Shown here: positions 6,566 to 26,685 of the stretch, one piece after another | Layout: every line of letters begins with the position of its first letter | Numbering within the stretch: position 1 is the first letter of the stretch | NCBI GenBank assembly: GCA_964643615.1 | Contig: CAZXTR010000001.1 | Coordinates: 1,923-65,922, forward strand | Origin: an uncultured Lactobacillales bacterium | GTDB taxonomy: Bacteria > Pseudomonadota > Alphaproteobacteria > CAAHEQ01 > UBA3637 | Length of the DNA: 64,000 bases | Reading direction: 5' to 3' | Translations under genes and position numbers: made by a program | The notes under the pieces: generated by a model | What the model was told of the DNA's origin: nothing | Database searches by the model: none | Seen by the model: the letters and a program-made list of their open reading frames with translations, nothing else

Positions 6566-7501
6566 TTATTGATTATCTCGACCTCTATCGTGCACAAAGA
6601 CATTGACCACAGAAGGCCTTTGGCGCTGGGGCTGGGGTTTATGTCTTCCTTTATTGATAATTTCGCTTTTTTTTAACTGTTTTTTCAACCTGTTTGATAA
6701 TGAATCGTTTTTCGGTTTTCGTTTTACTAAACGAATCTGTCGATAATAATTACATACGTTTTTTTGTTCGATTTCTTCGTATATCATATTTTTTATCAAT
6801 GGTTTCATCTTTTTATAATTACCAATTCCTTTTTTCCCAGCACTTGCAAGAAAAAAACCTCCTACAGCAAGACCTATAAGGACAGGGAACGACGTTGCAA
6901 AAGAAACTCCAGCCAAAATAAAACCTATACCAAGCAATGCATATTTTGCAATATCAAGCTCATTATCAGCACGAGCTTTTAATACCAAATTGCGAGAGTT
7001 ATCCATTTTTTTTGGATTCATAGCACTATCATCAATCAACTGTACATTCTTTTGTATTTGGAAACGAGTTTTTGAATCAAGTTGAGCTACATACGACATT
7101 TGTTCGGATATAACCTTTTGATACTTTGCCATTTCCAATTTTGCACGCATTTCTTTATTAAATGCTCGGCACGTCATAAAAAACCCAACAATTGCAAAAA
7201 ACTCGATTGTTATTAAAGGCGTAAATGGTAGCCCTAGCATTGATCCTAAAACAACCATTCCTCCAAGGCCAAGCGTAGTCAAAGAATACATGGCGGATTT
7301 TATTTTTTGTTGTTCCTTTTGTGCTTTTTCATTTCTCAAAGTCCTTTGAGATACGCTTAAAGCAATAGCTTTGTCCATGGGAGATAAATAACATTTTAGA
7401 GGATCCAATTTAACAAAATCTGCATGTAAAATATCATAATAATTTAGGGCAATCGACTTTTCAAATTCATTCGTGTTTTTCTTAGTGGGCATTACAAACA
7501 T
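6566..7501 (-). CDS. Hypothetical inner-membrane protein with a polybasic C-terminal tail
   Basis: 311 aa with 3-4 predicted TM helices in the middle (LGGMVVLGSMLGLPFTPLITIEFFAIVGFF; LLGIGFILAGVSFATSFPVLIGLAVGGFFLA) and a K/R-rich C-terminus. No family recognised. Confidence 0.5.
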   Translation of the reverse strand: MFVMPTKKNTNEFEKSIALNYYDILHADFVKLDPLKCYLSPMDKAIALSVSQRTLRNEKAQKEQQKIKSAMYSLTTLGLGGMVVLGSMLGLPFTPLITIEFFAIVGFFMTCRAFNKEMRAKLEMAKYQKVISEQMSYVAQLDSKTRFQIQKNVQLIDDSAMNPKKMDNSRNLVLKARADNELDIAKYALLGIGFILAGVSFATSFPVLIGLAVGGFFLASAGKKGIGNYKKMKPLIKNMIYEEIEQKNVCNYYRQIRLVKRKPKNDSLSNRLKKQLKKSEIINKGRHKPQPQRQRPSVVNVFVHDRGRDNQ

Positions 7502-7679: not shown

Positions 7680-7952
7680 TTATACTTTTTCATGAAATTT
7701 ACTATTCACAAGACTTGTCAATACTTGACACACTATTTTTTCATCTACGCCAGAGCAAGAAACAGATATTGTTGTTCCTTTAGAAGCCCCCAACATCATC
7801 AACCCCATAATAGATCGACCAGATACTTTCTGGCCATCTTTTTCAACCCAAACATCAGATTGGAAAGCGCCAACTTCCTTTACGAAATAAGATGCTGCTC
7901 GCGCATGCAACCCTTTTAAATTTTGAATTTGCAATTTAAAAACAACAGCCAT
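7680..7952 (-). CDS. ptsH: HPr/NPr phosphocarrier protein of the regulatory PTS
   Basis: 90 aa with the active-site region GLHARAAS and HPr fold pattern, downstream of EIIA-Man and hprK. Confidence 0.85.
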   Translation of the reverse strand: MAVVFKLQIQNLKGLHARAASYFVKEVGAFQSDVWVEKDGQKVSGRSIMGLMMLGASKGTTISVSCSGVDEKIVCQVLTSLVNSKFHEKV

Positions 7953-7955
7953 TAT

Positions 7956-8348
7956 TTATTTCAACAACCCCGAAGCAACATTGATATATTTTCGTCCTGA
8001 TTCTTTGGCCTCCTCAATTGCTATGCGCAAAGGTTTATTCCGCACTTGAACCAATTTAATTAACATCGGTAAATTTAATCCAGCCAAAACTTCAACAGAA
8101 CGCTCTTCCATAACAGAAATTGCTAAATTCGAAGGTGTCCCCCCAAACATGTCTGTCAAAATAGCTACACCTGACCCGGTATCCAATTTTTTCACTTTTC
8201 CCAAAATTTCAAGGCGCTTTTGCTCAATGTCTTCGGTTGCTAAAATGCAAACAGCATCAATTCCTTGTTGCATACCAACAACATGTTCCATTGCTATAAT
8301 CATTTCTTCTGCAACATGTCCATGAGAAACAACTAAAATTCCTATCAT
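7956..8348 (-). CDS. PTS EIIA component, mannose/fructose family
   Basis: 130 aa beginning MIGILVVSHGHVAEE, the phospho-His motif of EIIA-Man. Confidence 0.8.
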   Translation of the reverse strand: MIGILVVSHGHVAEEMIIAMEHVVGMQQGIDAVCILATEDIEQKRLEILGKVKKLDTGSGVAILTDMFGGTPSNLAISVMEERSVEVLAGLNLPMLIKLVQVRNKPLRIAIEEAKESGRKYINVASGLLK

Positions 8349-8387: not shown

Positions 8388-8813
8388 TTATTCAAGAAAA
8401 AATGTCTCTGATTGTTGTAATGCCAACTCTATTTTAAAAATTGCCGATACATCAAATGCATTAATTTGAACAATAGGAACACGACAATTTGCCATTTCAA
8501 AAAAATAAAAAACAGGCATTCTTTCAACTTTTGACCGCGGAACAAGATCGATAATCAATGATAATTTTGTTAAAGGTTTAAACGGAACGCGTACAATCCC
8601 TAAACCACGCACTTCTATTTGACCTTGAATGGTCTTTGGACAAGAGGCCCACAAAATACCATCTTTTTCATCAAGCACAACTTGATCGTCCGCCACCAAT
8701 CGGTGACCTTCGCGCATAAAGCGCAAACATAAATCCGTTTTGCCAGAACCCGATTTCCCTCGGATTAAAACACCTTTGTCATCAACATCAATACACGACG
8801 CATAAAGTAGCAT
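8388..8813 (-). CDS. hprK: HPr kinase/phosphorylase, short alphaproteobacterial form (C-terminal catalytic domain only)
   Basis: 141 aa with Walker A GKSGSGKT and the HprK C-domain motifs LVADD...EVRGLG. Confidence 0.85.
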   Translation of the reverse strand: MLLYASCIDVDDKGVLIRGKSGSGKTDLCLRFMREGHRLVADDQVVLDEKDGILWASCPKTIQGQIEVRGLGIVRVPFKPLTKLSLIIDLVPRSKVERMPVFYFFEMANCRVPIVQINAFDVSAIFKIELALQQSETFFLE

Positions 8814-8902
8814 TTTTTATTTCCTCTATTTTTAAAATAACTCTTTTAAAAACACTTGTCAAAAAGAACGTGATTATGTATGATGAACGTTAGGAGATAT
8901 AA

Positions 8903-8979
8903 GTTCGTGTAGCTCAGCAGGATAGAGCGCAGGATTCCTAATCCTGAGGTCGTGGGTTCGACTCCCGCCACGAACACCA
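8903..8979 (+). tRNA. tRNA-Arg (anticodon CCT)
   Basis: Hand-folded cloverleaf. Acceptor GTTCGTG/CACGAAC is fully paired, D-stem GCTC/GAGC, anticodon stem CAGGA/TCCTG, loop TTCCTAA, T-arm GTGGG-TTCGACT-CCCGC, discriminator A, encoded CCA. Confidence 0.9.
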
Positions 8980-8991
8980 TAGGGGCAATAG

Positions 8992-10263
8992 ATGTTAGCA
9001 ACAAAACCAGAAGAAAATTTGATTAATGCCTTGGATCGCATAAGGGGCGTTTCTACTCCTTTTTTGGGGATTTACATTGCAATGTCAAAATTAACCCCAA
9101 ACAACCGAGGCTATCGTCAATTGGAAATTGTATCCCGATTATTTAAATCCTTGACAACCACAGAACAAAGTCGCTTATTTTTGCTTTCCAACAAAGATAT
9201 AGCCTTTATTACACCGAAATCTTCGCTAAACACTGTTGAAGAAATTTTATACCAAATTCGAACTTTATTCGCAGACGATCCTTTTTTGACAGAAAAAAAC
9301 AAAACCTCTTTTCAACACGTTTTTTTCTTGGACAATGAATTGGATGCGTTTAAACAATTGGTGTTTCAAAAAAATAAAGAGTCGGATAGAATACTGTCGC
9401 CCTCAAAGGAAATCAACCCCCTCTCTCCAGAAATATTAGAATCTGTTGTTAATCGTTTGGAAAAATTAGAGGCCATCCACTTTATTCGTCGGCAATCCGT
9501 TTTGTCTTTCCACCCCAAGTTTGGAAATCATTTTTTATTTCAAGAATTTTATACTTCTATCTCTCATTTGCAACAAAAGCTGTGCCCAGCGTATAGCTTG
9601 CTGGCTGAAAAGTCTTTATTTTTTCAATTAACGCAAACTTTGGATAAGCAGACGTTGCTCGCTTTAACTCATTTTAATTTAAACGAATATCCACCAGCCA
9701 TCAGTCTCAATTTAAACATATCGAGTTTGTATACTGCGGTTTTTCAAGAATTGTCCCGAGTATGGCCTACACCATTGATTATTGAATTACAACTTGCAGA
9801 TATTTTTCACAACTTAAAAACATATCAAGATGCCTATAAAAAAATGCACGAAATGGGGCATCAAATATTGATCGATGGATTGTCGCCTTTGGATTTAGAT
9901 TGTTTGGATTTTTCGATTTTACAACCCGATTATTTAAAAATCAATTGGGACCCAGAGTGGAAAAAAGAAGGTAAAGCCGAGTTGTTAAAACCTTATATTA
10001 ACAAAACTTATTTAACTATTGTGTTGACACATTGTAGTTCTGAAGATGCTTTAATGTGGGGGCAAAAAGCGGGCGTTTTTTCTTTCCAAGGGCATTACGT
10101 TGATGCTATCTTGGGAGCGATGATTAAAAATAGTTGCACTTTTGGCCAAGAATGTACACTTGCTTCATGCATGACGTGTCGACGTTCTTTGTCGCCACAA
10201 GTCCGCAGCCAATGTGTCCATTTGAAACATTTAGACGCCAACCCAAAAATGAAGGCGATTTAG
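8992..10263 (+). CDS. Hypothetical protein with a truncated GGDEF-like region and a degenerate EAL-like domain (paralogue 1)
   Basis: 423 aa. C-terminal half aligns by eye to the EAL fold, with QGHYV ending in place of QGY, but the catalytic motifs are replaced. N-terminal region resembles the distal half of a GGDEF domain (LFLLSNKDIAF in place of RxGGDEF). Paralogous to the next ORF. Confidence 0.5.
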   Translation: MLATKPEENLINALDRIRGVSTPFLGIYIAMSKLTPNNRGYRQLEIVSRLFKSLTTTEQSRLFLLSNKDIAFITPKSSLNTVEEILYQIRTLFADDPFLTEKNKTSFQHVFFLDNELDAFKQLVFQKNKESDRILSPSKEINPLSPEILESVVNRLEKLEAIHFIRRQSVLSFHPKFGNHFLFQEFYTSISHLQQKLCPAYSLLAEKSLFFQLTQTLDKQTLLALTHFNLNEYPPAISLNLNISSLYTAVFQELSRVWPTPLIIELQLADIFHNLKTYQDAYKKMHEMGHQILIDGLSPLDLDCLDFSILQPDYLKINWDPEWKKEGKAELLKPYINKTYLTIVLTHCSSEDALMWGQKAGVFSFQGHYVDAILGAMIKNSCTFGQECTLASCMTCRRSLSPQVRSQCVHLKHLDANPKMKAI

Positions 10264-11466
10264 ATGATTTCAACGCGCGAAGAATTTGTTTCTTTTTTAG
10301 AAAAAACACAAATGACATCAGCCAAATGGTGGATTTTACACATCCGTATGAGACAGTTGGAAAAAGTGTTAGAAAGCGGACGACTTTTGGACGTAGCACA
10401 AATGTTGCGTACTTTCGAAAAAGGTAAACTGGGTCGGCTATTTGAAATAGGGGGAGATATTTTTATTTATTTTCCTCAAACACGCGAAGACGATATGCTG
10501 GCTTTAATCGTCAAAATTAAGTTTTTGTCGGGACCTCGTCTTAAGGATAAATTCGCATTTTATACCATTTACCAACTACAAACGCAAATGGATGATTTGC
10601 TTGATTTATTAAAACCTCAAGAAGAGAAAAAAGAAGTGGAGGCCTCCACTTTGCAAACAACGCCTTCCTCCACTGTCACAACCCCGATTTTCCAAGAACC
10701 TCCATCATTTATGCCATTTCGCCCAATTTTGTTGGCTCAATTAGAAAAAACGTTACTTCAAGCAGACTTGTCCAACATTATACGCAACCAACCAGTTTGT
10801 GCAATTGTTGGGAAATCACCCCCTTTAGAATTGTTTAAAGAAGTTTATGTTGCTATCACCGATTTGATAAAAACTTTGTGCCCCAACGTTGATGTGCGTC
10901 GTTCTCCGCACTTATTCAATCGATTGATGGAAACTTTGGATAAGCGTGTTTTAGAAAATGTTGCCCACCACGATGGGGGAGCTTACCGTAAAAATTTCAG
11001 TTTAAATTTATCTGTCAAGAGTTTATCCACTGAAGATTTCCTTCGTTTTGACGAAAGTTTAACTGCTGCGAATAAAGAAACTATTTTGTTGGAAATTAAA
11101 CAAAGCGATATTTGTACAAACCTAGCTTCTTTTTTGTCTGTACGAGAAAAAATACAGCGAAAAGGATATCGTTTTTGTATGGACCTTGTCACCTTTGATT
11201 CTTTAGCGTTAGTACAAAGAGAAAAATTAGGCCTCGACATGATAAAAATCATTTGGTCTGCTGATATATTGAATAAACCATTATTGGATTTGTCCAAAAA
11301 AGCCATTCAAAAAACTAATCCGGAAAGGTTAATCCTTTGCCATGTTGACGACAAAAGAGCCATTGACTTCGCCCAAAATCTTGGCATTTCAATATTCCAA
11401 GGTTACTATATCCAAAAACTTTTGTACAAAACGCCTAAAGCCGTACGCATTAATCGACCTACATAA
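10264..11466 (+). CDS. Hypothetical protein with a degenerate GGDEF (GGDIF) region and a degenerate EAL-like domain (paralogue 2)
   Basis: 400 aa. [13 protein letters not shown] matches the RxGGDEF strand with E replaced by I. An EAL-like block is present: QPVCAIVG...[24 protein letters not shown] in place of EGVE, and QGYYI. The start ATG abuts the stop of the previous ORF (TAGATG). Confidence 0.55.
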
Positions 11467-14300: not shown

Positions 14301-15110
14301 CTATCCTTTAAGATATTCGGCGATTTTCAAAACATCTCCGCTGGCTTCAGCATTAGGATACGCAGACAAAATAGAACTTTGTGCACGAATACTATCCCGT
14401 ACGCGCGTATCACGTCTAATAATCCCCGCCAATTCAGGTGAAATTTTCAAAAATCCTTGGCACGCTTTTAACAGCGTGGAATAAGTCTTTTCTCCCTCAC
14501 GGTAAGTATTCGCCGAATTAATGACAATTTTTATTGTAATATCTGGATTTTCTTTAGATATGATTTTAATAAAAGCATAAGCATCTGTCAATGAAGTTGG
14601 TTCGTCAGTACATACGACTAACAAAGTTCCTGCATTCTCGGCAAAAAGACGCACTGCTTTTTCAACGCCTGCACCCAAATCAATAATTACCTTGTCGTAT
14701 CTAGACGCCAACAATTGTAAATCATCAAAAATTATTTGCAATCGAGATAAAGGTATGTTTGCCAAACTCCCCGAACCAGACCGCCCAGCAACAACATCAA
14801 ATCCATACTCTGGGCATGGGATAATCGCCTGAGTCAAAGGAACTCGCCCTGTAATTACAGACCCCAAATCAAAAGGCGTCACCAGTCCCAATTGAATGTC
14901 CACATTAGCCAAACCTAAATCTCCATCAAACAATAATGTTTTCGTTCCGTCCATTGCTAATGCGTGTGCCAGAGAAATAGAAAACCATGTTTTACCAACA
15001 CCTCCTTTGCCTGAAGCTATAGCAATCATATTACGTCCCTTATGGCGCTCTGACGCTTTGGGTGCCATTTTCAATTTTTGCGGTAAAGAAAGAATGCGTG
15101 AAATATTCAT
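14301..15110 (-). CDS. flhG: MinD/ParA-family ATPase of the FlhG (FleN/YlxH) type
   Basis: Deviant Walker A SGKGGVGKT; 269 aa; immediately downstream of flhF, as in flhF-flhG pairs. Confidence 0.7.
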   Translation of the reverse strand: MNISRILSLPQKLKMAPKASERHKGRNMIAIASGKGGVGKTWFSISLAHALAMDGTKTLLFDGDLGLANVDIQLGLVTPFDLGSVITGRVPLTQAIIPCPEYGFDVVAGRSGSGSLANIPLSRLQIIFDDLQLLASRYDKVIIDLGAGVEKAVRLFAENAGTLLVVCTDEPTSLTDAYAFIKIISKENPDITIKIVINSANTYREGEKTYSTLLKACQGFLKISPELAGIIRRDTRVRDSIRAQSSILSAYPNAEASGDVLKIAEYLKG

Positions 15111-15119
15111 TTTCCCCTC

Positions 15120-16064
15120 TTATTCTTTTGATAACATCATTTGAGCCAAAGATTGTGCGTCTATCGGACAAAGGCCTTGAGAAACATGTGGGCTTATTCC
15201 TGCATCACACAAACCTAACGAATGCACTTGAGCTGCATATAAAACACTGCCAAACCGTCTTGCTAAATCTAACCGCGTTGCTAATAACCGCTTACATCCT
15301 AATGGTAAAAAAGCTTCCACCATATCTATCGATTCAAAAGCGTCCATTCCTGCCGACATCACTAAAACAGGTTCTAACCCATTGATGTCTTTTTTCATGT
15401 TTTTTAAAAACTCAATATCAAATGACGAAAATGGATTAATTCCTGGGCTGTCAATCACTATCATGTCTACATTTTGACGCACATTTTCAATTGTTTCTTT
15501 TAAAAGTTCTGGCTTTTGAATTTTTATCAATTCAACCTCTAAAATTTGGGTAAAAGCAGACAATTGTTCTACTGCTCCTGCGCGTTTCATATCTGTTGTA
15601 ATAACAGCTACTTTTCTCCCAGAAATTTTAGCTCTGACAGCCATTTTTGCTACTGCAATAGTTTTACCAGAACCGCTAGATCCAACCAACATAAACGCCC
15701 TTTTCGCAGTGTGCGAAGGCAATGGATAAAATTTGAAAACTCGTTCTAATCCCATACTCAACAGCGCCGTTTCATCTTTTTTTTCACAACCATAGCAAGC
15801 CAATAAAATACGTTCTATTAAAATATCTGGGACACGATGAAATTCAAGATTTTCACGAATAGTGTGTAATGATTTTTCCTCTGCAGGACCAAACAAAGCT
15901 TCTTCAATTTCTTTTTCGCTGGTAGTTTCTTCAACCCCAACGGTTAAACGTACACCATCTTTCACATGTTGATTGGATATAATTAAAACATCACTACCGA
16001 AATCTTTTCGAATATTCTCCATAGCCGAGGCCACTGACTGTGCAACGTATGTTTTAATCTTCAT
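15120..16064 (-). CDS. flhF: Flagellar-type SRP-like GTPase FlhF
   Basis: 314 aa with GTPase motifs G1 GSSGSGKT, DTDMKRAG and an NG-domain layout like FtsY/Ffh. Paired with a MinD-like gene. Confidence 0.75.
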   Translation of the reverse strand: MKIKTYVAQSVASAMENIRKDFGSDVLIISNQHVKDGVRLTVGVEETTSEKEIEEALFGPAEEKSLHTIRENLEFHRVPDILIERILLACYGCEKKDETALLSMGLERVFKFYPLPSHTAKRAFMLVGSSGSGKTIAVAKMAVRAKISGRKVAVITTDMKRAGAVEQLSAFTQILEVELIKIQKPELLKETIENVRQNVDMIVIDSPGINPFSSFDIEFLKNMKKDINGLEPVLVMSAGMDAFESIDMVEAFLPLGCKRLLATRLDLARRFGSVLYAAQVHSLGLCDAGISPHVSQGLCPIDAQSLAQMMLSKE

Positions 16065-16070
16065 AACATG

Positions 16071-16877
16071 CTATCCTTTTTGTCTTTTAAAATAAACAAT
16101 CCTTTCCGAAGCTGGCAAAAGGCTGTTCATTTCGGCTTCTGTGCGTCTGGGGTTTTCCTTTTTATCAATAGAAACTAACCCCACAAGGCATAATTGATTC
16201 AATTTTAATTTTTCTTGTGCGTCTTTTTCCAATCTTGAAGCTAAAGGGAAAAAGACAACATATGCCAATACTGCCCCATAAAATGTAGTCAACAAAGCAA
16301 CCGCCATTGAAGGTCCGACGGTTGTAGGATCTGACAAAGAAGACAACATTTGAACCAATCCTATCAATGTCCCAATTAATCCCATCGCAGGAGCAATTTC
16401 TCCGGCTTTAGACATCACCAACACCGATTGCATTTGAGTTTCATACAAAGCATCCATGCGGTGGCGCATTATTTCTTGACATTCTTTACCTGTCATGCCA
16501 TCAATTAAGCAAGATACTCCTTCCTTTAAAAAAGGAAAGCTTTTTAGTGATTCTATATAGTTTTGACGCAGTTGCAAAATCCCACTTGTATAGGCAATTT
16601 CCGAGCCACGAACCACTTGTAATGCAACGCTACTTGGATGGCGAGATTGATGTACAAAAAGCCTCAACACAGATTGCATACTTTGACCAATTTCTCGCAA
16701 AGAGAAACTAATTAAACAGGCAAAAAACGTACCACCCAAAACAATCCAAAGAGCGGGTTTGTTGATAAAGGAGCCAAAATGGCCACTCATCATAATCGCG
16801 CATCCAATCAAAAAGAAAACGCCAAATAATCCAAGCAATACAGAAATATCAACAAGCGAAAAATTTGAATGTTTCAT
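16071..16877 (-). CDS. motA: MotA/PomA-family stator protein
   Basis: 268 aa with four TM helices. The TM3-4 motif AVALLTTFYGAVLAYVVFFPLASRLE matches the MotA/PomA plug and channel region. No motB is adjacent. Confidence 0.7.
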   Translation of the reverse strand: MKHSNFSLVDISVLLGLFGVFFLIGCAIMMSGHFGSFINKPALWIVLGGTFFACLISFSLREIGQSMQSVLRLFVHQSRHPSSVALQVVRGSEIAYTSGILQLRQNYIESLKSFPFLKEGVSCLIDGMTGKECQEIMRHRMDALYETQMQSVLVMSKAGEIAPAMGLIGTLIGLVQMLSSLSDPTTVGPSMAVALLTTFYGAVLAYVVFFPLASRLEKDAQEKLKLNQLCLVGLVSIDKKENPRRTEAEMNSLLPASERIVYFKRQKG

Positions 16878-16893
16878 TTTTACCCTCTTTTCG

Positions 16894-17217
16894 TTAAGGT
16901 TTTACAATTTCTGTCATTGTCACACACAATTTTTCCCCTCGGTTTACCAATTCACCTTTGGCTATTAAATGATTATTGACATAAATGTCGATTTGTTCTC
17001 CCGCTTGTTTATCCAACTCGACAACAGAATCTGGACCCATTTTCAACAATTCATGCATTGGCATAACTGCTTTTCCCAAAACTGCCGTCACACAAACGGG
17101 AATATTGAAAAGCGCATTTGACGAAGTTATTTCTTCTTGAAACGTATTTGTTATTTTCCCCGTTTGGAGCGTTTTTTCTGCCAATTTTAAAAAATCTGCT
17201 TTTTGTTTTTCATTCAT
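16894..17217 (-). CDS. fliN: Flagellar motor switch protein FliN (SpoA domain)
   Basis: 107 aa; C-terminal SpoA signature VVELDKQAGEQIDIYVNNHLIAKGELV. Confidence 0.8.
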   Translation of the reverse strand: MNEKQKADFLKLAEKTLQTGKITNTFQEEITSSNALFNIPVCVTAVLGKAVMPMHELLKMGPDSVVELDKQAGEQIDIYVNNHLIAKGELVNRGEKLCVTMTEIVKP

Positions 17218-17226
17218 AACCTTTTC

Positions 17227-18243
17227 CTACTCTATCATTTCTTCGGTATCTTCACCTTGAGATAAAATAACATCCCCTTTTAATGCCAAATCTTTAGCAA
17301 TTGCTACAACATCCGACTGAGCTTGGTCCACATCACGCAACCGAACGGCTCCCAAGGCTTCCATATCTTCGGTCAAAATCAATCTGGCTTGCGGAGATAA
17401 ATTGCCCATAAAAGCTTCAACCACACTATCGGAAACTCCTTTTAAGGCTATTGCCATTTTTTGACGTTCTACAGCTCTTAAAACATTTTGAATGGAAGAG
17501 GAATCCAACAAAGCTATATCTTCAAATGTAAACATCATAGAACGCACTTGTTCGGCCACATCACGGTTACGTTCAAACAAAGCCGTCATCAACCGATTTT
17601 CCGTTTTCCTATCTAAATAATTAAAAACGTCGGCAATACGTTCGTGACCTTCCTTACCATCCGATTGTGCTAAAGTGTTCATGAAATCATCATGCAAAGT
17701 TTGTTCAACCTCTTGTAACACATCTTTTTTTACATGCTCTAAACGAAGAAGTCGCATAATAATATCCATGACAAAATCTTCGGGCAAAAATGAAATAACT
17801 TTTGCTACATAATCTGGATTTAATCGCGATAAAATAACGGCGCCTGTTTGCGGATATTCGTTTTTCAAATAGCCCGCTAAAACATCTGCATTAACATTTT
17901 CCAATTTTTCCCACACCGTCCCTCCTGCAGGGCCTTTTATTTCATCTAAAATATTTTTTTGGCGTAAGCCTGGCAACACTTTTTGCAATAACTTTTCCGT
18001 TCTTTCAAATCCTCCACTTAATGACCGTGGTTTATCAAAACTATCCAAAAAATCTTCTAACACTTTTTGCGTCAAAGCCGAATCAACATTACCCAAATTT
18101 GCCATAGTAATTGAAACTTCACGAACTTCATTGTCGTCAAATTGTTCGAATATTTTTTTGACGAAACTTTCTCCTATGGCCAACAAAAAAATAGCAATTT
18201 TTTGACGTCCTGTCAATGTTTCATAAGTCAGAGATTCTGGCAT
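17227..18243 (-). CDS. fliG: Flagellar motor switch protein FliG
   Basis: FliG N, middle and C-terminal domain pattern (MPESLTYETLTGRQKIAIFLLAIGE...). The start is taken at ATG 18241-18243 with RBS AGGAGG 9 nt upstream, 1 nt after the fliF-like stop. The ORF-track start at 18318 would overlap the upstream gene. Confidence 0.85.
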   Translation of the reverse strand: MPESLTYETLTGRQKIAIFLLAIGESFVKKIFEQFDDNEVREVSITMANLGNVDSALTQKVLEDFLDSFDKPRSLSGGFERTEKLLQKVLPGLRQKNILDEIKGPAGGTVWEKLENVNADVLAGYLKNEYPQTGAVILSRLNPDYVAKVISFLPEDFVMDIIMRLLRLEHVKKDVLQEVEQTLHDDFMNTLAQSDGKEGHERIADVFNYLDRKTENRLMTALFERNRDVAEQVRSMMFTFEDIALLDSSSIQNVLRAVERQKMAIALKGVSDSVVEAFMGNLSPQARLILTEDMEALGAVRLRDVDQAQSDVVAIAKDLALKGDVILSQGEDTEEMIE

Positions 18244-18244
18244 G

Positions 18245-19126
18245 TTAGAATCCCTCCTTTGGATCTTGATAAAACCATGAACACAAAACGTTAACCGTTT
18301 CAGACATGTCATTTTCAACTCGCTGATGGACTTTTTTCATTAACGGGGTTTTAAGTTCAACTCTTGTTGGAGATTCTTTTAATAAATCACTCACCACTTC
18401 GGCATTCGCAAAAGCAGGCAAAGACGATTGACTTTCTAAAGGCGTTTTCGACAAAAACCTTTTCCAAACAATCCAAATAAAGCCAATAACAACAGCAAAA
18501 ATTAAAAGGGCAAACTCGGCAAAACGAACCCATGTCGGCGACAATAATGTTTTAGGGACAGAAACATTTTTGAATGGCGTTGTTAAAAATTCAATTTTAT
18601 CGCCTCTTTTCACATCAAAACCAATTGCTGTTTTGATTAATGAATACAAGTTTTCTTTGTCTATCACAGCCCCCGACGAATCAATTAAAACGGCCACTGA
18701 TAATTTTTTAACTACGCCGCCGTTTTGGATTTGTTGAATGTTTTTTTTGGAAAAAATATATGTAATTTCTTCGGCAGTGTTGTTCGTTTTAGACGTTTGC
18801 ACAATCGGCATATCCGAATCTAAAACTTCACGGTTGATAATATTTTGGTTAAAGTCGATATCTGCTTGCACAGAAACCGTAACATTTCCCACTCCGACAA
18901 CTTTTTCTAACATTTGTTGGACAGAACCTGCCAACCTTGTTTCATAAGATTTGCGGACATTTTCAAATGCGAGCACAGAGGCGGACAAGTCACCGTTTTT
19001 ATTGTTTGTAAAGGATTCTTGCGCCTGTGCGGACGAAAAACAAAGGCCAACAAACATTAAAAATGCAATGCTTTTTAACCCTTGTACGCTTATTTTTAAA
19101 CATTTCTTCAAGCACAACCAGAGCAC
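18245..19126 (-). CDS. fliF: FliF-like MS-ring protein, short form. An N-terminal signal/TM is followed by the C-terminal half of the FliF periplasmic domain, a second TM and the cytoplasmic FliG-binding tail
   Basis: 293 aa with FliF-like blocks: VGVGNVTVSVQADIDF, KKLSVAVLID, AIGFDVKRGDKIEF, then TM2 FAEFALLIFAVVIGFIWIVW and a roughly 70-aa tail. About 250 aa of N-terminal periplasmic sequence expected in FliF is absent. Only 120 bp separate this ORF from divergent rluD. Confidence 0.6.
   Translation of the reverse strand: MLWLCLKKCLKISVQGLKSIAFLMFVGLCFSSAQAQESFTNNKNGDLSASVLAFENVRKSYETRLAGSVQQMLEKVVGVGNVTVSVQADIDFNQNIINREVLDSDMPIVQTSKTNNTAEEITYIFSKKNIQQIQNGGVVKKLSVAVLIDSSGAVIDKENLYSLIKTAIGFDVKRGDKIEFLTTPFKNVSVPKTLLSPTWVRFAEFALLIFAVVIGFIWIVWKRFLSKTPLESQSSLPAFANAEVVSDLLKESPTRVELKTPLMKKVHQRVENDMSETVNVLCSWFYQDPKEGF

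Positions 19127-25539: not shown

Positions 25540-26685
<1,146 letters not shown>

Follow-up and report, generated by a model that had tools for sequence, protein, structure and literature searches.

A translationally coupled pair of degenerate GGDEF-EAL proteins behind tRNA-Arg(CCT), candidate subunits of a catalytically inactive sensor in an uncultured alphaproteobacterium

Among the effectors of the second messenger cyclic diguanosine monophosphate (c-di-GMP), degenerate GGDEF-EAL proteins form a well-known class. Two neighbouring genes of this type, here called P1 and P2, lie in a 64,000-nucleotide stretch of the genome of an uncultured alphaproteobacterium (GenBank assembly GCA_964643615.1, contig CAZXTR010000001.1, positions 1,923 to 65,922 of the forward strand); this whole stretch is called the window, and all coordinates refer to it. 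An earlier inspection of the bare letters (the sequence-only reading) had described two neighbouring open reading frames (ORFs) of 423 and 400 amino acids, directly after a tRNA-Arg(CCT) gene and with secA downstream. The ORF list and ARAGORN bear out this arrangement, and both frames are on the plus strand. The reading of their products that we prefer, with about even confidence, is that of a catalytically inactive, soluble two-subunit sensor, likely a c-di-GMP receptor or adaptor of the TipF, LapD and FimX kind. The two genes and the parts of their products are as follows.

8992..10263, plus strand: P1 (type A subunit), 423 amino acids, with a GGDEF-like N-domain, an EAL-like domain and a Cys/His tail (ORF list)
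8992..9375, plus strand: N-domain of P1, residues 1-128
9427..10134, plus strand: EAL-like domain of P1, residues 146-381
10135..10260, plus strand: C-terminal tail of P1, residues 382-423
10264..11466, plus strand: P2 (type B subunit), 400 amino acids (ORF list)
10264..10617, plus strand: N-domain of P2, residues 1-118
10720..11439, plus strand: EAL-like domain of P2, residues 153-392

P1 and P2 are translationally coupled, and the ATG of P2 directly abuts the TAG stop codon of P1. This abutment had been noticed before, together with a proposed TAGATG "read-through" spacing at the start of both genes; the motif is real at the P1/P2 junction, but the TAG in the spacer before P1 ends no ORF. 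The common layout ascribed to the two proteins also holds up. They are paralogues from end to end: BLASTP aligns 395 amino acids at 24% identity (E 2e-26). At the downstream end, secA is convergent with P2 and the two 3' ends overlap by 8 nucleotides (11459-11466), with no intrinsic terminator-like site seen at this boundary.

The tandem architecture of these proteins is best recognized from their fold. For P1, AlphaFold2 was run with 28 family sequences and gave a model with a predicted local distance difference test (pLDDT) score of 86.6. The chain begins with an alpha/beta N-domain (about residues 5-128); a disordered linker joins this to an EAL-type barrel (146-381), and a short helical tail follows. 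The best Foldseek matches of the full-length model are the GGDEF-EAL tandems RbdA, MorA, LapD, PA0575 and DosP, with E values of 1e-12 to 1e-9 and more than 410 aligned columns, so structure prediction agrees with the domain layout first proposed from the letters. Within the model, the N-domain is a shortened GGDEF-like fold with the order alpha-beta-alpha-beta-beta-alpha-beta-alpha. Its likeness to GGDEF domains spans the domain core, at 103-115 of 128 residues, and is thus not confined to the second half of the domain, as had been thought. Sequence profiles give no such signal. The Pfam GGDEF profile (PF00990) matched neither P1 nor P2 at E<=10, nor any of 84 relatives, and a profile of the N-domain run against the sequences of the PDB found no GGDEF chain at E<=10. 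No profile search, whether against Pfam, NCBIfam or the PDB, led to GGDEF, and fold comparison alone did; the likeness of the N-domain to GGDEF is thus one of fold, with no hidden Markov model (HMM) match behind it. There is no extra N-terminal module, since no other Pfam domain was found and the GGDEF-like domain begins at about residue 5.

The N-domain of P1 has its own conserved residues, namely S32, N38-R39, Q43, N67-x-D69 and D95-D96-P. Among these, N67-x-D69 sits at the hairpin that carries the GGDEF motif in cyclases; the hairpin of P1 reads L-S-N-x-D, and N-x-D is common to P1 and the single-copy relatives of the family. An RxxD I-site is absent from the position five residues upstream of the hairpin. 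The N-domain of P2 is homologous to that of P1, yet it has lost all family-wide motifs. The R-x-G-G-D-I-F stretch that had been reported for P2 does exist (IGGDIF, 10447-10464), but it is found only in this genome, and P2 orthologues read DDDAF, NEDAF, DQDVY or similar at this place. The signature of active diguanylate cyclases, GG(D/E)EF, is absent in P1 and the corresponding site is variable in P2.

The second domain of both proteins has the TIM-like barrel fold of the EAL type. For P2, the EAL assignment is confirmed by the Pfam profile (PF00563; 45.2 bits, above the gathering threshold of 31.3 bits), whereas P1 falls slightly short of the same threshold (29.1 bits, E 8e-7). In the wider family, 60 of 84 members match this profile at E<=0.01, and an NCBIfam search of the pair returned a negligible match to CsrD and nothing else. 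Residues were assigned by aligning the family to RbdA, LapD, Lmo0131 and BlrP1, and columns were counted in 58 sequences. Nine positions are invariant in 58 of 58 sequences: Q168, E185, N240, E265, D270, D295, K316, Q366 and G367 in P1, corresponding to Q176, E193, N248, E277, D282, D307, K328 and Q379-G380 in P2. Q168 and Q176 belong to a QP motif, and E185 and E193 open the EAL triplet, which is EFY in P1 and EVY in P2, not ELF as first read. Identity of the EAL domain between groups of the 58 sequences is just 26-36%, and most of the nine positions remain at least 90% conserved in the 84 more diverse members.

Other positions of the pocket have been replaced. The Arg of EALxR is S or A (S189 in P1), the second Asp of the DD pair is G, A or M (G296 in P1), and the first Glu of EGVE is gone, with T346-H-C-S in P1 and C359-H-V-D362 in P2; in both paralogues ExxE has a substitution at its second Glu and the loop-6 motif DFG(T/A)GYSS is replaced, and KxD no longer has its Asp. 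The second Asp and the EGVE Glu are also replaced in single-copy relatives. Neither paralogue has the full residue set of an active EAL phosphodiesterase. The sequence-only reading was thus correct that EGVE is not intact, and too broad in stating that every catalytic signature is substituted: the second Asp, the EGVE Glu and the loop-6 motif are lost, but the nine positions listed above are invariant. From work on RocR, BlrP1 and TBD1265, we take the retained Glu, Asn, Glu and Asp to be the ligands of the first metal. The lost second Asp and EGVE Glu serve the second metal and are required for catalysis (as cited in PMC3792480).

Because GG(D/E)EF, the second Asp of DD, the EGVE Glu and the loop-6 motif are all absent, P1 and P2 are most simply regarded as enzymatically inactive, and because residues for either catalysis are missing, a role as receptor or adaptor is the natural reading. 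The Foldseek tandems and the missing catalytic residues together support the doubly degenerate GGDEF-EAL protein of receptor or adaptor type that had been suggested for this locus. It had also been suggested that the pair may have lost nucleotide binding; this is less likely, because metal- and substrate-contacting residues are invariant. The invariant residues and the precedent of TipF suggest that the EAL pocket of P1/P2 would bind c-di-GMP without hydrolysing it.

TipF of Caulobacter crescentus is the nearest functional precedent. It has ESF in place of EAL and D-K in place of DD, and requires E211, D331 and K352; it binds c-di-GMP at 0.4 uM and shows no phosphodiesterase activity over 24 h. 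The Arg of EALxR and the Glu of EGVE are still present in TipF but dispensable for its function (PMC3792480). TipF and the P1/P2 family can be likened at the level of the EAL fold and its residues: both are alphaproteobacterial, carry a non-EAL triplet that retains the Glu, keep the first Asp and the Lys, and have lost the second Asp, although the pair of positions reads D-K in TipF and D-G or D-M in P1/P2. TipF is tied to flagellar placement, and genomic context suggests the same for the pair and for one soil clade. The two differ in several respects. Ahead of its EAL domain, TipF carries two transmembrane segments and a coiled coil instead of a GGDEF-like domain; it retains the EALxR Arg and EGVE Glu, both of which the P1/P2 family has lost; and it is encoded by a single gene and works with TipN and PflI in bacteria without FlhF and FleN, whereas P1-P2 is a coupled pair.

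A second Caulobacter crescentus protein, CmrA (CCNA_02061), may be related. It is a soluble "hypothetical" protein in which only structure prediction revealed a tandem of degenerate GGDEF and EAL domains; its function needs the EAL-pocket residues E292, D344 and Q376, it is linked to the flagellar motor, and it has been proposed to be a c-di-GMP effector (bioRxiv 10.64898/2026.08.21.746235). Judged by its published description, CmrA has a residue spacing with no obvious match to the P1/P2 family, is encoded by a single gene, and is not reported to have a Cys/His tail. Should CmrA turn out to belong here, genetic work on the family would already have a starting point. LapD and FimX share their domain order with P1/P2, and the inactive GGDEF-EAL tandem is common to all of them at the level of fold. 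Additional modules are present in both, a periplasmic domain, transmembrane helices and HAMP in LapD, and REC and PAS in FimX, and both have full-length GGDEF domains that HMMs detect, whereas the N-domain of P1/P2 is shortened and escapes them. LapD and FimX are reported to bind c-di-GMP without the set of metal ligands that P1/P2 retain.

Four lines of evidence (junction spacing, recurring pairs, a natural fusion and complementary constraint) argue that P1 and P2 would form a heteromer descended from a homodimer. In relatives with a readable junction, as judged from gene calls or full-length matches, stop-start spacing ranges from -4 to +1 nucleotides. Pairs of a type-A and a type-B gene also recur in unrelated high-GC lineages. 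At locus L031, a Cys-tailed type-A gene (E 3e-76 against P1 and 7e-31 against P2) overlaps a type-B gene (9e-72 against P2 and 3e-53 against P1) by 4 base pairs; frames likewise overlap in L072 and L101, while L085 and L104 have adjoining frames, with potential start codons located slightly further downstream, by a few codons. The last two pairs are without the Cys tail and look like the unfused form of P0118, a 712-amino-acid protein (L032, 4406-6544) that is a natural fusion of the order N-domain-EAL-EAL, in which the same order is kept and the second N-domain is lost. The neighbour of the homologue in L004 was considered as a second paralogue and rejected.

The constraint on the two paralogues is complementary. 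Within the family, the N-domain is 59% identical among P1 proteins and 36% among P2 proteins, and the EAL domain 45% and 65%, respectively; compared with single-copy relatives, the N-domain reaches 25% in P1 and 13% in P2, and the EAL domain 30% and 36%. To judge from these values, P1 seems to keep the ancestral N-domain and P2 the ancestral and better-conserved EAL domain. The coupled A-B pair would thus offer a clean case of the transition from homodimer to heterodimer, and it provides a hypothesis as to which subunit binds the ligand.

P1 has in addition a C-terminal tail of the form C382-x5-C388-x4-C393-(C396)-x11-C408-V-H410-x2-H413-L-D. It is conserved in the 27 tail-bearing sequences of the P1 family that were aligned, 24 of which are classed as P1 in the 58-sequence set, and it is also found in the distant type-A members P0098, P0111, P0140 and P0170 and in the upstream genes of L072 and L101. 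Neither P2 nor the single-copy members have such a tail. The sequence-only reading had mentioned neither this tail nor the complementary decay of the two paralogues nor the existence of similar pairs elsewhere. The tail is a possible metal site, with zinc or an Fe-S cluster as candidates; its spacing presumably resembles that of the CX5CX5C(+His) Fe-S ligands of Rrf2/IscR regulators.

A mechanism can be proposed on this basis. The EAL pocket would still bind a nucleotide, probably c-di-GMP together with a divalent cation, without cleaving it. P1 and P2 would associate through their EAL domains as a heteromer descended from an ancestral homodimer; the N-domain would still work in P1, and the EAL pocket would be better preserved in P2. 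Ligand binding would alter the contacts of the complex with a partner, for which the neighbourhood offers FlhF/FleN or the HprK/EIIA/NPr phosphotransfer system as candidates, and the Cys/His tail of P1 might add a metal- or redox-dependent input. The most detailed form of this proposal is quite unlikely to be correct as a whole: P1-P2 would be an obligate A-B heterodimeric second-messenger receptor whose type-A tail holds an Fe-S cluster or a metal ion. The complex would combine signals of redox state, oxygen or iron with c-di-GMP or some other nucleotide, and would control polar-flagellum placement (FlhF/FleN) or the HprK/EIIA/NPr regulatory phosphotransfer system. Its genes would be expressed from a tRNA promoter as a tRNA-mRNA co-transcript. 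If true, the pair would be the founding member of a large family of alphaproteobacterial effectors that HMMs do not see.

Several points weigh against an inactive two-subunit c-di-GMP sensor. The case for the heteromer draws on gene arrangement and the fusion, not on a prediction of the complex. The Arg of EALxR, which is lost in the family, reportedly contacts the phosphate of c-di-GMP in active enzymes such as RocR and BlrP1. The alignment to Lmo0131 shifts the register of ExxE by two residues; the other two alignments and the invariance of E265 were followed over it. A scan for GGDEF motifs in the window and in loci L001-L028, which sample a small fraction of each genome, found none except a chance match in IF-2. 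Finally, gene neighbourhoods vary by lineage (hprK; fleN-flhF; regA/regB with hldE; ppx-ppk), so they single out no output partner for the family.

One alternative is that P1 and P2 are ligand-independent adaptors, acting through protein-protein or protein-RNA contacts in the manner of the anti-FlhDC proteins YdiV and STM1697 or of CsrD. Those three proteins have degenerate EAL domains and regulatory roles without c-di-GMP binding, and YdiV and STM1697 control flagellar gene expression. With the metal- and substrate-contacting positions invariant across the family, this alternative is less likely than a sensor. A further alternative concerns the N-domain, which could be a ferredoxin-like alpha/beta domain of other descent with a superficial likeness to GGDEF; such an origin is improbable. 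Finally, the pair could still be enzymes, either weak or conditional phosphodiesterases (with one metal, or upon heterodimerization) or hydrolases of another nucleotide. The four residues assigned to the first metal and the catalytic-site Lys are kept, an invariant extra Asp (D270/D282) stands close to the lost second Glu of ExxE, and some EAL proteins are broad in their use of cyclic dinucleotides (6ifq is among the hits). However, P1, P2 and the single-copy relatives alike carry substitutions at the second Asp and at the Glu of EGVE, the loop-6 motif is absent, and TipF, which is also without the second Asp, was inactive over 24 h (PMC3792480). Retained activity is therefore a highly doubtful explanation, and the catalytically inactive sensor is preferred in what follows.

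The region upstream of P1 has the following features.

8856..8884, plus strand: promoter-like TTGTCA-17-TATGAT upstream of the tRNA gene (consensus scan; function inferred)
8903..8979, plus strand: tRNA-Arg(CCT), CCA end encoded (ARAGORN)
8980..8991, plus strand: spacer between the tRNA gene and P1, TAGGGGCAATAG, with a Shine-Dalgarno-like AGGGG (sequence)

Only 12 nucleotides separate tRNA-Arg(CCT) from the start codon of P1, and no terminator-like site was found in this interval. The -35 of the promoter-like site falls inside ACTTGTCAAA, which is invariant, together with the TAT of the -10, in the seven species aligned; a purine-rich, ribosome-binding-like run follows the tRNA gene at the same position in all seven. 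The minus strand of the promoter-like element reads TTGACA-17-TATTTT and is directed at hprK. P1-P2 thus appear to share one transcript with tRNA-Arg(CCT), and positions 8853-8991 suggest a tRNA-mRNA co-transcript combined with a shared divergent control region.

This arrangement is not private to the window. Searches found 34 homologues of P1 (about 30 of them orthologues) and 47 of P2; in a collection of species-representative genomes the best match reached 55%. Each paralogue has its own set of orthologues in uncultured, mostly gut-derived Alphaproteobacteria. Seven other species (L006-L011 and L015) have npr-EIIA(Man)-hprK on the minus strand followed by tRNA-Arg(CCT), P1 and P2, with protein identities of 47-55% and a distance of 14-15 nucleotides between the tRNA gene and the P1 orthologue. 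Three further loci, L001, L003 and L013, stand for two species, since L003 is a duplicate of L001. In these the pair is found across the hprK cluster, on its opposite flank, while hprK keeps the tRNA gene beside it. The GC content of the pair is 35-39%, equal to that of its flanks, and no integrase was seen among the ORFs or called genes flanking it, in a check that did not extend to direct repeats.

The pair is vertically inherited and an old component of the genome. The sequence-only reading had seen a typical accessory insertion in the position of the genes between the tRNA gene and secA, and had held that presence of the pair at this locus in all relatives would speak against it. Recent insertion is refuted because the same tRNA-P1-P2 arrangement occurs in the seven other species. 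A recently acquired island at tRNA-Arg(CCT), for which genes directly 3' of a tRNA and next to secA could be cited, is scarcely credible in view of a conserved unit with its promoter and Shine-Dalgarno run, the pairs on the other side of the same hprK cluster, the normal GC content without a flanking integrase, and an ancient family of 808 clusters. A gene adjacent to a tRNA need not mean an island.

The neighbours on either side of the pair are listed next.

7680-7952 (npr/HPr), 7956-8348 (EIIA-Man) and 8388-8813 (truncated HprK), minus strand: phosphotransfer cluster divergent from the pair (ORFs; Pfam in relatives; tblastn synteny)
14301-15110 (fleN/MinD-like) and 15120-16064 (flhF), minus strand: genes for flagellar number and placement (Pfam)

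The hprK-EIIA-npr cluster is the constant neighbour of the pair in this clade. On the other side, past secA, fleN lies 2.8 kb from P2 and is followed by flhF, motA, a fliN-like ORF, fliG and a short fliF-like gene. The closeness to a flagellar-type module that had been pointed out is therefore real in the window, and it recurs in one distant clade. In a clade of soil alphaproteobacteria resembling Geminicoccaceae, a single-copy homologue lies about 1.5 kb from fleN in 10 of 13 loci (L016, L019-L024 and L026-L028), with flhF beyond it in nine. The homologue is convergent to fleN-flhF, and the intervening ORF of about 430 amino acids is rich in Pro and Ala and had no Pfam match in L019. In L005, the homologue (1402-2631) lies inside an operon of the order flgM-flgN-X-fliD-fliS-fliT. 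No flagellar neighbours were found in 80 further metagenomic loci, and a flagellar link as a rule for the whole family was dropped; it held in the one soil clade and the one operon.

The flagellar cluster of the window is itself unusually compact (16071-19126, minus strand), with a "FliF" ORF of 293 amino acids and a fliN-like ORF of 107. The Pfam match of the short "FliF" is confined to the YscJ_FliF_C part, and a pseudouridine synthase gene begins directly after it, therefore leaving no space for a full-length FliF. The gene flhA was not seen before flhF in the window.

Elsewhere, the neighbourhoods are different. In Azospirillum, the homologue is found next to aspS and ppx-ppk. In the P0084-like group (L033-L112), the family gene most often has a RegA/ActR/PrrA-like response regulator beside it, in 37 of 97 loci; next in frequency are a multi-pass histidine kinase resembling RegB, in 29, and an HldE-like bifunctional kinase/adenylyltransferase, in 28. 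These neighbours could reflect synteny of the lineage or a redox link; as proof of a functional link their clustering was rejected, and it was treated as lineage synteny.

The family as a whole is large. At E<=1e-3, a profile of the N-domain retrieved 808 clusters formed at 50% identity, of which 481 also pass E<=1e-10, and the domain is almost always N-terminal in proteins of 400-450 amino acids. Among the named carriers are Oceanibaculum, Magnetospirillum, Terasakiella, Fodinicurvata, Stellaceae and Azospirillum, and the family also occurs in uncultured Alphaproteobacteria from gut and soil. The gene is single-copy in 73 of 80 metagenomic loci. Members are annotated as "hypothetical" or "EAL domain-containing" and none has a named function; literature searches found no characterized member in Magnetospirillum or Rhodospirillales. 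What seems new here is a widespread, HMM-invisible family of degenerate GGDEF-EAL proteins, present in the window as a coupled, subfunctionalized heteropair with a putatively metal-binding tail; the protein class itself is familiar. Censuses of c-di-GMP proteins that are based on Pfam would largely miss this family: no member gives a match for the GGDEF-like domain, and about one in four gives none for the EAL domain. For annotation, genes of the P1/P2 type are better called putative inactive sensor subunits of the c-di-GMP type than phosphodiesterases.

Two further observations concern the rest of the window. Between gap, which encodes GAPDH (glyceraldehyde-3-phosphate dehydrogenase), and npr, an ORF of 311 amino acids on the minus strand (6566-7501) has predicted membrane-spanning stretches and no meaningful Pfam match, and lies in the stretch of lowest GC content locally (31-34%). 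At 25546-26685, the window encodes an N6-adenine DNA methyltransferase of the CcrM type, with N6_N4_Mtase and RAMA domains, which is consistent with an alphaproteobacterial origin.

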